Of a stretch of DNA of 36,587 nt, positions 26,114 through 28,172 are shown piece after piece. The notes beneath the pieces are model-generated. The model was not told the origin of the DNA, did no database searches, and worked only from the letters and a program-made list of their open reading frames with translations. Origin of the DNA: a virus (Duplodnaviria > Heunggongvirae > Uroviricota > Caudoviricetes); IMG/VR virus record IMGVR_UViG_2703718784_000020. The stretch is one strand, 5' to 3'. Position numbers and translations under genes: made by a program. Within the stretch, counting starts at the first letter, position 1, and each line of letters opens with the position of its first letter.

Positions 26114-26166
26114 CATCAGGGCGAACACGCCCTGATGTTGTGTTATTCAGGAAATAACGCCCTGAT
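26114..26166. promoter_or_regulatory. Palindromic candidate operator upstream of the three-gene cargo cluster
   Basis: Perfect inverted repeat CATCAGGGCG-AACA-CGCCCTGATG (26114-26137) plus a further direct copy of CGCCCTGAT about 30 bp away; not followed by a T-run. Confidence 0.4.
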
Positions 26167-26454
26167 ATTTCTGGCCATCTGACTGGTTATCTGTGCGGTT
26201 GGTACTGGCTGTGACAGGGGGTGTTCTGTCCTGGTTTGTGTCACTGATAACGCCTCATCATCAGCCCATGCAGCCAGTCGGTAAGCCTCTGCCGGATTCA
26301 TTTTCAGAAGTGCCAGCCCGGCCAGAAAAGCCACGCGTTGGCCGCTTTTGCGGGCTTCTGGTGTAAGGCTGTCCAGCCAGGCGCATGCTTCGCCTTCGTT
26401 CTTGACGGCGGCGGGCTTCAGATAGAAACTTATCCGTCTGGTTGGTGTCGTCAT
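26143..26454 (-). CDS. parR: ParR-like ribbon-helix-helix centromere-binding protein
   Basis: ORF track 26143-26583; from the ATG at 26454 the 103-aa product RRISFYLKP...LDSLTPEARKSGQRVAFLAGLALL...ALFP aligns by eye with plasmid R1 ParR (RRTIAFKLNP...LDSIPQGERSRLNRAALTAGLALY...SLFP); RBS GGAG 9 nt upstream. Confidence 0.7.
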   Translation of the reverse strand: MTTPTRRISFYLKPAAVKNEGEACAWLDSLTPEARKSGQRVAFLAGLALLKMNPAEAYRLAAWADDEALSVTQTRTEHPLSQPVPTAQITSQMARNIRALFPE

Positions 26455-26458
26455 TGGT

Positions 26459-27418
26459 TTACTCCTTGTCCATTGCGTACAGCCCATTAACCAGAGCAAA
26501 CTGTGGCACCCCGTCCGCGATGAAAGTCGCATTAACTCCGCAGGCTTCGCGGATAGCGGGTGCCACAATCTCCGCTCCTCCACCTACAACCATCACCCGC
26601 CCGTAACCCGAAAAACCCGCCAGCGCGCGGATCACGCGTTGTTTCAGTGTTTCTTCCTTTTCACGAATAACCGCCATCAGGCTGGCGTAATGTGCGTCAT
26701 TGTGGATGTGCTGGCGCAGCCAGGCTTCATCGTGGCGATGTTCGATAATGGTATTGGCGATGTGGTGACTGGTACGCATACCGTTAGTGGCCATCACCGA
26801 CAGTACGGCATCGGCCATCAGAGAAACGCCTACGTGTGGATCGCAAAATACCTGGCTGATACCTGCCAGCTGCCCCTGAACCTTTGCCACATCCAGCGTG
26901 GTTCCGCCTAAATCCACAATCAGCAGGGATTCAAACGGACTCATGTCAGCCAGTGCCTTAAAGCCAGCCGGAATGGATTCAGGCATAACCCGCACGTTAC
27001 GGATAGTGAATGCTTCGCCGTTCTGGTACTCCACCGGGCGCATAACGTTCGCTTTTTTGCGGTTGATGTTGGCCATGTCCGGCTGTGCGTTTGTGTCGAA
27101 ATACTCGCTCAGTGGCAGGGTGACAACCACATCCACTTCCTGTGGTGTGATGCCTGATTTGACCAGCGCGTGATGAATGGCAATTACATTCACATCGCTG
27201 TACTGGTATTGCGTGTCGGTCGTCTGGACAAAGCGATCGCTGACCGGATCAAAACCATAGCGCACGCCATCAAGCATGTAGTTCGCGGGCTGCGTGCCAC
27301 CGAACGGCGCAGACCATTCCGACTTGAAGCTGTTCGGGCTGATGGCGTTGCGGCGTTCGCCGTTCTCAGTCCATGCCAGCTTGATGTTGGTGGAGCCGTC
27401 GTCGATACAAATTTTCAT
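26459..27418 (-). CDS. parM: ParM/StbA-like actin-type segregation ATPase
   Basis: 319-aa product MKICIDDGSTNIKLAW...ISPNSF...YSDVNVIAIHHAL...VMPESIPAGF...SLLIVDLGGTTLDV...GVSL...MVVGGGAEI closely parallels my recollection of plasmid R1 ParM along its whole length. Confidence 0.85.
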   Translation of the reverse strand: MKICIDDGSTNIKLAWTENGERRNAISPNSFKSEWSAPFGGTQPANYMLDGVRYGFDPVSDRFVQTTDTQYQYSDVNVIAIHHALVKSGITPQEVDVVVTLPLSEYFDTNAQPDMANINRKKANVMRPVEYQNGEAFTIRNVRVMPESIPAGFKALADMSPFESLLIVDLGGTTLDVAKVQGQLAGISQVFCDPHVGVSLMADAVLSVMATNGMRTSHHIANTIIEHRHDEAWLRQHIHNDAHYASLMAVIREKEETLKQRVIRALAGFSGYGRVMVVGGGAEIVAPAIREACGVNATFIADGVPQFALVNGLYAMDKE

Positions 27419-27454
27419 GTCGTTTTTCCTTATGTTGATTAATTAATCGGTTAC

Positions 27455-27544
27455 AGGATTTTTAAATCCCGCTTTTGCCTGTTTTGTGCGCGCTTCATAT
27501 ATCGCGGCACGTTTTTTGCTCATTTACGGGATTTGTGAATCCCG
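27455..27544. promoter_or_regulatory. parC-like site: two copies of an imperfect palindrome flanking a promoter-like AT-rich core
   Basis: CAGGATTTTTAAATCCCGC (27455-27473) and CGGGATTTGTGAATCCCG (27527-27544) lie either side of GCGCGCTTCATATATCGCGG, directly upstream of parM. Confidence 0.5.
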
Positions 27545-28172
27545 TTTCTGTCTGTTTTTTGTTTCCACTGGTCAGGCTACCCCGCAGCAGGTCTGCTTTG
27601 CGGCTGGCGCGTTCAGTGGTTTCAGTGATTCTCTGTGCGTGCTCTGCGTCGCGGATGGCGCGCAGCATGTCAGAAAGCACGGTAACGGGTGTTTTCATGG
27701 TGTTCTGGTCCTGCTGAAGTGTGGATGCCAGGCGTGCGGCGGCTTCAGGGTCTGATGCCCCCAGCTGTGCCAGATAGCTGGCGACCGGGTTATGGCGGAT
27801 CTCCGTGCTGCTTACGCCATGATTACGGCTCAGGCGCTGCCAGAGCTGCGTGATTCGGCTGTCCGGGCGGGTATCCGGTTTGCGTACAATTTCAAATCCC
27901 TGCGGTGCAATGATGCTGCCGTCAACGTACAGACTGCCGCCCCGTAACAGGTGCTGCATCTGTTGTTCACCGATATGCAGGCCGAGAGATTCAGCAGACT
28001 CCCGCCATTCTTTAGCGAGTAATTCGTGGTTATCAGGCAAAGGCCGCTGCTGTTTGCGGCTCTGTGTCCAGCTCTGCATTTCATCACTGCTGTTTTTTGC
28101 CTGTTTGTCACGAAGCGAACGCATCAGCGCCCGGCGTTCGTGCCGTTTCAGTGAGCGCATCCATTCGTTCAC
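27495..28172 (-). CDS. Hypothetical protein; reading frame continuous with gene A across a single TAA
   Basis: 225-aa ORF (track start is a GTG); the 89 codons between the gene A stop at 28440-28442 and this start are also open in the same frame. Confidence 0.4.
   Translation of the reverse strand: MNEWMRSLKRHERRALMRSLRDKQAKNSSDEMQSWTQSRKQQRPLPDNHELLAKEWRESAESLGLHIGEQQMQHLLRGGSLYVDGSIIAPQGFEIVRKPDTRPDSRITQLWQRLSRNHGVSSTEIRHNPVASYLAQLGASDPEAAARLASTLQQDQNTMKTPVTVLSDMLRAIRDAEHAQRITETTERASRKADLLRGSLTSGNKKQTETGFTNPVNEQKTCRDI

Follow-up and report, generated by a model that had tools for sequence, protein, structure and literature searches.

A conserved R1-type ParM/ParR cassette beside the replication gene of P88-like prophages and its putative role in segregating phage DNA

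The 36,587 nucleotides of Escherichia coli DNA analysed here (the window; IMG/VR virus record IMGVR_UViG_2703718784_000020) contain a P2-family prophage that carries, directly after its replication gene gpA, a cassette of three parts: parM, which encodes an actin-like ATPase; parR, which encodes a small adaptor; and a pair of repeats upstream of parM that is a candidate for the cis-acting site parC. Two full-length, conserved members of the R1 ParM and ParR families, together with the upstream repeat element, point to a genuine and functional type II (ParMRC) partition system of the R1/R100 type. A strongly selected segregation machine of this type would thereby be present in an integrating phage of roughly 24% of complete E. 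coli genomes. We consider it somewhat better than an even chance, at a probability of about 0.55, that the cassette segregates or positions extrachromosomal, gpA-replicated circles of phage DNA, a reading that leans on analogy with better-studied systems. A first-pass annotation of the window had placed a complete cassette at 26143-27560 within an integrative P2-like prophage; these coordinates are accurate, and family, structure-database and comparative evidence all bear out the assignment.

ParM has the hallmarks of an actin-fold ATPase across its full length, with matches to the Pfam StbA_N (1.8e-82) and ParM C-terminal (1.3e-68) domains. It matches the R1 ParM structures (PDB 1mwk) over residues 2-316 with an E value of 9e-93. 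Pairwise alignment with R100 ParM, the sequence of which was taken from the plasmid collection, gives 47% identity across 318 residues. The phosphate-1 motif DDGSTNIK, the PESIPAG motif, the phosphate-2 motif DLGGTTLD and the adenosine motif GGGAE are unchanged between the two proteins, and the alignment places E147 and D169 of the phage protein at the catalytic E148 and at D170 of R1. Conservation and selection were assessed in a sample of 85 loci drawn from IMG/VR and genomes. An intact parM of 319 aa is present in all 85, and its pairwise ratio of nonsynonymous to synonymous polymorphism (pN/pS) is 0.055. The gene is under strong purifying selection.

ParR belongs to the same Pfam family as R100 ParR (StbB), which matches PF10784 at 2.6e-30. 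In BLASTP the two share 34% identity over the N-terminal 56 aa (E 2e-8), and a profile built from phage-type ParRs has as its top match the solved structure of pB171 ParR (2jd3, E 0.0023). Alignment and structure comparison are thus in keeping with the earlier likening of both proteins to ParM and ParR of R1. The parR start is the ATG at 26454, 4 nt past the parM stop and preceded by an AAGGAG ribosome-binding site; a mechanically listed GTG at 26583 was rejected in its favour. The gene is intact in 81 of the 85 loci. Its product consists of an N-terminal domain (pN/pS 0.17-0.23), a variable linker (about 0.7) and a conserved C-terminal tail, NIRALFPE (0.15-0.25). A DNA-binding domain, a flexible linker and a ParM-binding peptide would be expected to show such a pattern. 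The N-terminal strand RRISFYLKP and the tail NIxxLFPE are also found in plasmid ParRs, in which the linker differs; the tail resemblance is confined to some of these, such as that of plasmid p19-7P3 (NNIKNLFPDDE). The AlphaFold2 model of the ParR monomer is of too low a confidence for a fold search (pLDDT 55.9, pTM 0.32); it has helices at residues 20-61 and 87-100 and no N-terminal strand, and the ribbon-helix-helix fold is that of an obligate dimer.

There are two ParR allele classes, of 103 and 104 aa and about 52% identical (loci L011-L090). They have in common an invariant stretch of 17 residues at the start, MTTPTRRISFYLKPAAV, and the tail NIxxxFPE. Both classes are paired with nearly identical ParM (99%) and parC, and a recombination breakpoint lies about 18 codons into parR.

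A conserved repeat element sits where parC should be. It comprises a 38-nt direct repeat in two copies, 27451-27488 and 27524-27561, which share 82% identity at a spacing of 73 bp. Each unit, read on the sense strand, has an A/C-rich tract followed by a palindrome, and the paired palindromic repeats reported by the first-pass annotation are these two palindromes. Their consensus in the lineage is ACGGGATT-N4-AATCCCGT. The window has no occurrence of the motif GGGATTYNNRAATCCC beyond these two, where chance alone would give 0.41. Both palindromes and the 73-bp spacing are kept in 80 of 83 loci, among which the palindrome arms are conserved and the central 4 nt are variable, and the same palindrome variants are found with both ParR allele classes. 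In a Hafnia relative with a 95% identical ParM, the 143-bp block is 78.6% identical to that of the window, whereas the adjoining gpA 3' end reaches 60% and the third codon positions of parM 68.6%. The conserved islands of the block in this comparison are the palindrome arms and the A-tracts. The candidate parC overlaps the last 22 codons of gpA, the stop codon of which is at 27495-27497. Because the distal repeat sits in these last codons, the element is not a free-standing intergenic region. From the likeness to R1 we infer that ParR binds it.

The region between the palindromes had also been described as a promoter-like core, a description that has weak backing in the sequence. A consensus scan found no σ70-like site between or around the palindromes. 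A relaxed scan returned weak candidates only, and the best that can be picked out by eye in the core, aTGAgC-17-TATATG, is without the conserved final T of the -10 element. The palindromes were also considered as intrinsic terminators of the early operon, and rejected: they are terminator-like on the plus strand only, which is antisense to the operon, and the changes in their arms across the 83 loci are not compensatory. A search for structured RNA found no Rfam match within 26100-27600.

How closely does this arrangement follow that of R1? The phage cassette shares with R1 and R100 the order cis-site, parM, parR, and a cis element immediately 5' of parM whose sense strand is A/C-rich. By our own reading, the R1 iteron core AAAACCC resembles the phage half-site AAATCCC. 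However, R100 parC is made of ten A/C-rich 11-bp direct iterons (2 x 5) around a strong TTGACA promoter, whereas the phage has two 38-nt units with 8-4-8 palindromes and no clear promoter. The phage ParR is also shorter than that of R100 (103 versus 116 aa) and differs from it in the C-terminal tail, the cis element extends into the end of gpA, and the cassette is carried by an integrating P2-like phage and not by a plasmid. The claim of R1 architecture therefore stands as regards gene order and the placing of the cis element, and fails as regards the organisation of the repeats. The features are collected in Table 1.

Table 1. Coordinates of the partition cassette and of other features in the window
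Feature	Position	Strand	Description
parM	26459-27418	minus	R1-type actin-like segregation ATPase, 319 aa
parR	26143-26454	minus	Small adaptor, 103 aa; Pfam Plasmid_stab_B (PF10784), 1.6e-24
Candidate parC (centromere/operator)	27419-27561	minus	About 143 bp directly upstream of parM; two 38-nt units
Proximal palindrome	27453-27472		ACAGGATTTTTAAATCCCGC on plus strand; one arm mismatch against lineage consensus ACGGGATT-TCAG-AATCCCGT
Distal palindrome	27526-27545		ACGGGATTTGTGAATCCCGT; perfect 8-4-8; within C-terminal codons of gpA
gpA replication endonuclease	27495-30317	minus	Pfam Phage_GPA, 1e-131; one 940-aa coding sequence in RefSeq
GC-rich hairpin	26111-26140		Directly 3' of parR stop; CAGGGCG-N4-CGCCCTG stem
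Hok/Gef-family toxin open reading frame	2016-2156	minus	46 aa; Pfam HOK_GEF, 3.7e-7, above gathering score; near the ogr end
C4 antisense RNA	31049-31136	minus	Early region; Rfam, 82.8 bits, above gathering score
isrK Hfq-binding small RNA	31172-31246	minus	Early region; Rfam, 62.6 bits, above gathering score
IS009 small RNA	10919-11117	minus	Full-length Rfam match, 187.7 bits; overlaps tail-fibre-assembly gene region
Family 9 glycosyltransferase (heptosyltransferase-like)	9588-10826	minus	Pfam, 4.2e-6; adjoins tail fibre genes

The cassette is widespread among relatives of this prophage. It is present at 94-98% DNA identity in 14 phage records, among them P88, Xuanwuvirus P884B11, PhiR44_2, Citrobacter phage PhiSM, Chuche, 520873 and 503458, where its genes are annotated as 'plasmid segregation protein ParM' and 'partition protein'. 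The ParM protein of the window is 100% identical to that of P88 (NC_026014) and 99.7% identical to that of PhiSM, at a DNA identity of 97%. P88, P884B11 and PhiSM carry the same cassette with no material difference; the gpA of the window has a premature stop. Every phage record that matches the gpA 3' end also has the cassette, and each context locus examined has the order gpA-parM-parR. Matches to parM with a coverage of at least 80% are found in 1279 of 5426 complete E. coli genomes (~24%), and this type of gpA in 1323; assuming that both genome sets overlap, the cassette accompanies about 97% of these phages. The first-pass annotation had named, as an outcome that would refute it, that the cassette prove to be a common, conserved component of this phage lineage with a known replication role. 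Half of this has come about: the cassette is common and conserved, but a replication role is not known for it.

In a collection of 50,697 phage records, the only members of this ParM subfamily are those of P88-like phages and of D6, a P1-like phage-plasmid (47.8% identical). A tblastn search of 72,556 plasmids with ParM gave at least 5000 matches, and among the matches listed all are at most 52% identical, save six prophage-holding records; within the P88-like lineage ParM is at least 95% identical. With the phage-type ParR, the plasmid search matched only prophage-bearing records, and in a search of 5.8 billion proteins nearly all matches of this type were from Escherichia, the few others coming from Cronobacter and Hafnia. 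Scans for related loci yielded no relatives below 98% identity. Judged by these comparisons, the cassette is old and specific to its lineage, a core module that P88-like peduoviruses (genus Xuanwuvirus) have inherited vertically. The idea that it is a plasmid-derived segment is accordingly rejected as an account of a recent event, given the distance of the plasmid ParMs listed and the restriction of this ParR to prophage-bearing records. A 226-kb contig labelled Vagococcus sp. (NZ_JBQPOM010000071.1) has the prophage ParM at 98% identity, which is probably the result of assembly contamination or mislabelling.

The existence of the cassette is already on record. P88, PhiSM and RefSeq all have its genes annotated, and the idea of combined episomal and integrative states is in print: Pfeifer et al. 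2021 (PMC7969092) scored P88 as a putative phage-plasmid, with both states possible, on the strength of its genes for partition and replication. In the PhiSM paper the partition protein is listed as fitness cargo, and the P88 paper does not mention the cassette genes. We found no functional study in the literature on ParM or partitioning in P2-like prophages, Xuanwuvirus or Peduoviridae.

What, then, would an integrating phage have to segregate? The cassette is at the distal end of the early/replication gene block. The gpA gene is directly upstream of parM on the same strand, with a gap of 76 nt and no terminator-like site on that strand before parM. Since the cassette follows gpA in this way and has no strong promoter of its own, circles made by gpA are its most plausible substrate. 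In P2, gpA yields monomeric circles by rolling-circle replication. In the mechanism that we propose, ParR dimers would bind the two palindrome units upstream of parM through an N-terminal domain of ribbon-helix-helix type, and the C-terminal tail of ParR (NIxxLFPE) would capture the ends of ATP-dependent ParM filaments. Growth of the filaments would push parC-bearing DNA molecules apart. The molecules so moved would be extrachromosomal circular phage genomes, both after infection and before integration, and again after excision. Active distribution of circles would let both daughter cells, or both cell halves, inherit phage DNA. Abortive lysogeny, or the loss of excised phage, would become less frequent, and the phage could adopt a plasmid-like state, whether transient or facultative. 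In the integrated prophage the cassette probably stays silent or can be dispensed with.

The window also encodes a Hok/Gef-family toxin (Table 1), and the same protein, by its accession WP_000078920.1, is annotated in a circular 34.5-kb copy of a related phage (NZ_CP148288.1). A scan of the window with Rfam found no Sok RNA. Plasmid R1 has two stability loci, parA (parMRC) and parB (hok/sok). With parMRC and Hok/Gef both present, the phage has homologues of both, and the toxin would fit the same maintenance insurance.

Two precedents weaken the premise, stated in the first-pass annotation, that an integrating phage has no need of segregation. The best functional analogy is srpMRC of the SXT/R391 integrative and conjugative elements (ICEs), a ParMRC-type system on a normally integrated element. 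It stabilised a partition-defective single-copy plasmid and cut loss of the excised, rolling-circle-replicating form. It differs from the present case in that SrpM and SrpR are distant from R1 ParM and ParR, the element is an ICE and not a phage, and expression is tied to int and to the SetCD activator. The second precedent is AlpC/AlpA/alpS of the Corynebacterium glutamicum prophage CGP3, in which the actin-like ATPase and DNA-binding adaptor of an integrated prophage are reported to act on induced, extrachromosomal phage DNA. AlpC belongs to a distant actin-like family in a Gram-positive host, and its reported role is efficient replication and transport rather than inheritance. If partition of excised or pre-integration circles is what the P88-like cassette achieves, it extends to tailed phages the SXT/R391 idea that integrative elements invest in plasmid-like inheritance. 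A partition role would also bear on prophage loss, lysogenisation efficiency and the classification of phage-plasmids.

Several observations weigh against segregation of phage circles as the function. Other P2-like phages do without such a cassette. Rolling-circle replication by gpA is not known to support stable low-copy maintenance. With two palindromic sites in place of the ten R1 iterons, a ParR-parC complex of the R1 kind is not assured. In E. coli, 1441 of 1443 parM places are chromosomal. Phage-plasmids are expected to be autonomous replicons in their lysogens and to carry a plasmid-type initiator beyond the phage functions; this copy is integrated between tRNA-Leu and yecA, and the RefSeq feature table of the prophage lists no plasmid-type initiator or theta replicon, just the rolling-circle gpA, the small open reading frames having been scanned in part. 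Two plasmid records were discarded as evidence of an episome. In Salmonella pS2122_1 the chromosomal genes pheA, rplS and ffh adjoin the prophage, and the Shigella boydii 'plasmid' is a linear, IS1-ridden fragment.

Of the plasmid records, one alone is a circle of phage size. A complete P88-like phage is present in PLSDB as a circular 34,461-bp 'plasmid' (NZ_CP148288.1) of the cat E. coli isolate Z1323PEC0009, and the circle includes the integrase, cox, gpA, parMR and hok. The chromosome of the human isolate Z1323HEC0067 (NZ_CP148378.1: 2658787-2683793) contains an identical phage in integrated form (100.0% over 25 kb), and the strain names suggest that this isolate is from the same study. Z1323PEC0009 itself is absent from the matches in the E. 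coli collection, and may carry an integrated copy as well. The circle may be a plasmid prophage or simply excised, replicating phage DNA that arose by spontaneous induction. Taken together, an episomal phage-plasmid lifestyle for P88-like phages has little support.

Among the alternatives to segregation, a role in the lytic cycle survives best, although we hold it to be unlikely. Here ParM and ParR would, in the manner of AlpAC, move or space replicating circles for efficient replication or packaging, and would have no part in inheritance or lysogeny. The position of the cassette immediately after gpA, with apparent read-through, agrees with this. P2-type phages package monomeric circles, so that separation of circles could matter. 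In CGP3, AlpC and AlpA are reported to be needed for efficient replication of phage DNA (PMC4446434 and PMC5539076). However, ParM of the R1 type works as a bipolar machine that pushes paired low-copy plasmids apart, and P2, 186 and other peduoviruses replicate efficiently without the cassette. In addition, the only other phage record with this ParM subfamily is D6, which is maintained as a plasmid. D6 has a PF10784 ParR beside its ParM (as StbB and StbA), and its annotators remarked on the similarity to P88 StbA. The P2-like phage KS14 is a precedent for a plasmid prophage in this group, with a RepB initiator and a type I ParA. Both D6 and KS14 are plasmid-maintained, whereas P88-like phages encode a tyrosine integrase and lie in the chromosome in nearly every case.

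It is rather improbable, though of wider consequence, that P88-like phages are truly bimodal, either integrating or persisting for generations as low-copy circles, with gpA to replicate them, ParMRC to segregate them and Hok to police them, or that in the lysogen parC, ParR and ParM move a locus of the host chromosome. Bimodal P88-like phages would make integrative prophages and phage-plasmids harder to tell apart.

A further alternative is lysogenic conversion or competition, in which the integrated prophage would express the cassette, and resident ParR and parC, with ParM, would impose partition incompatibility on related phages that enter and are still episomal, or on plasmids with a cognate centromere, or would act on a host chromosome locus. 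In P2 the lysogenic-conversion genes tin and old lie between gene A and the portal gene; the cassette takes that place here, variable cargo genes come after it, and ParR has split into two allele classes whose linker is hypervariable. Incompatibility, however, would not require so strongly constrained an ATPase. The two ParR classes differ neither in the DNA-binding N-terminus nor in the palindromes, which gives no indication that specificity has diversified, and with the phage-type ParR confined to these prophages no plasmid target of this type is evident. Nor did the consensus and relaxed scans find a clear promoter from which the cassette could be expressed on its own. We regard this explanation as doubtful. 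Finally, that the cassette is an inert relic of past plasmid recombination, passively carried, is effectively refuted: the family is typical of conjugative plasmids, with its thousands of plasmid matches, and an integrating phage was once supposed to need no partition, but the reading frames are intact and constrained, the cis repeats are conserved, the cassette is near-universal in its lineage, and the closest plasmid ParM among the matches listed is 52% identical.

The prophage that carries the cassette is an integrated P2-family (P88-type) element in the E. coli chromosome. The window begins with pgsA and the genes for tRNA-Gly, tRNA-Cys and tRNA-Leu and continues with the complete prophage as far as the integrase; yecA is just past the window end. 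The prophage genes comprise hok, ogr, the tail, lysis, capsid, terminase and portal genes, the early operon with gpA, the immunity region and the tyrosine integrase.

The gpA gene of the window has an in-frame TAA at 28440-28442, which would cut the protein at residue 625 of 940. RefSeq has GAA (A in the window and C in RefSeq at 28442). In all, 11 scattered single-base differences separate the window from the RefSeq sequence of the same strain, E. coli STEC2018-607 (NZ_CP075697.1), at positions 790, 7180, 7244, 9798, 15190, 17455, 22748, 28442, 29474, 30349 and 31691. If real, the TAA would make this copy of the prophage replication-defective; alternatively, it may be an assembly-version or sequencing difference.

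The GC-rich hairpin after parR marks the 3' boundary of the conserved cassette, and megablast homology to other P88-like phages begins at about 26115-26149. Most loci with the 103-aa ParR retain its stem, in which variants are compensatory, and show changes in the loop. Beyond it is a variable cargo region (24650-26110) with three small open reading frames, one of which has an Ead/Ea22-like neighbour match.

Elsewhere in the prophage, the Rfam matches to C4 and isrK in the early region suggest that this P2-like phage has an antisense immunity element of the P1/P7 type. IS009 was matched in the tail-fibre-assembly region, and the glycosyltransferase gene that adjoins the tail fibre genes is probably a cargo gene for modification of lipopolysaccharide.

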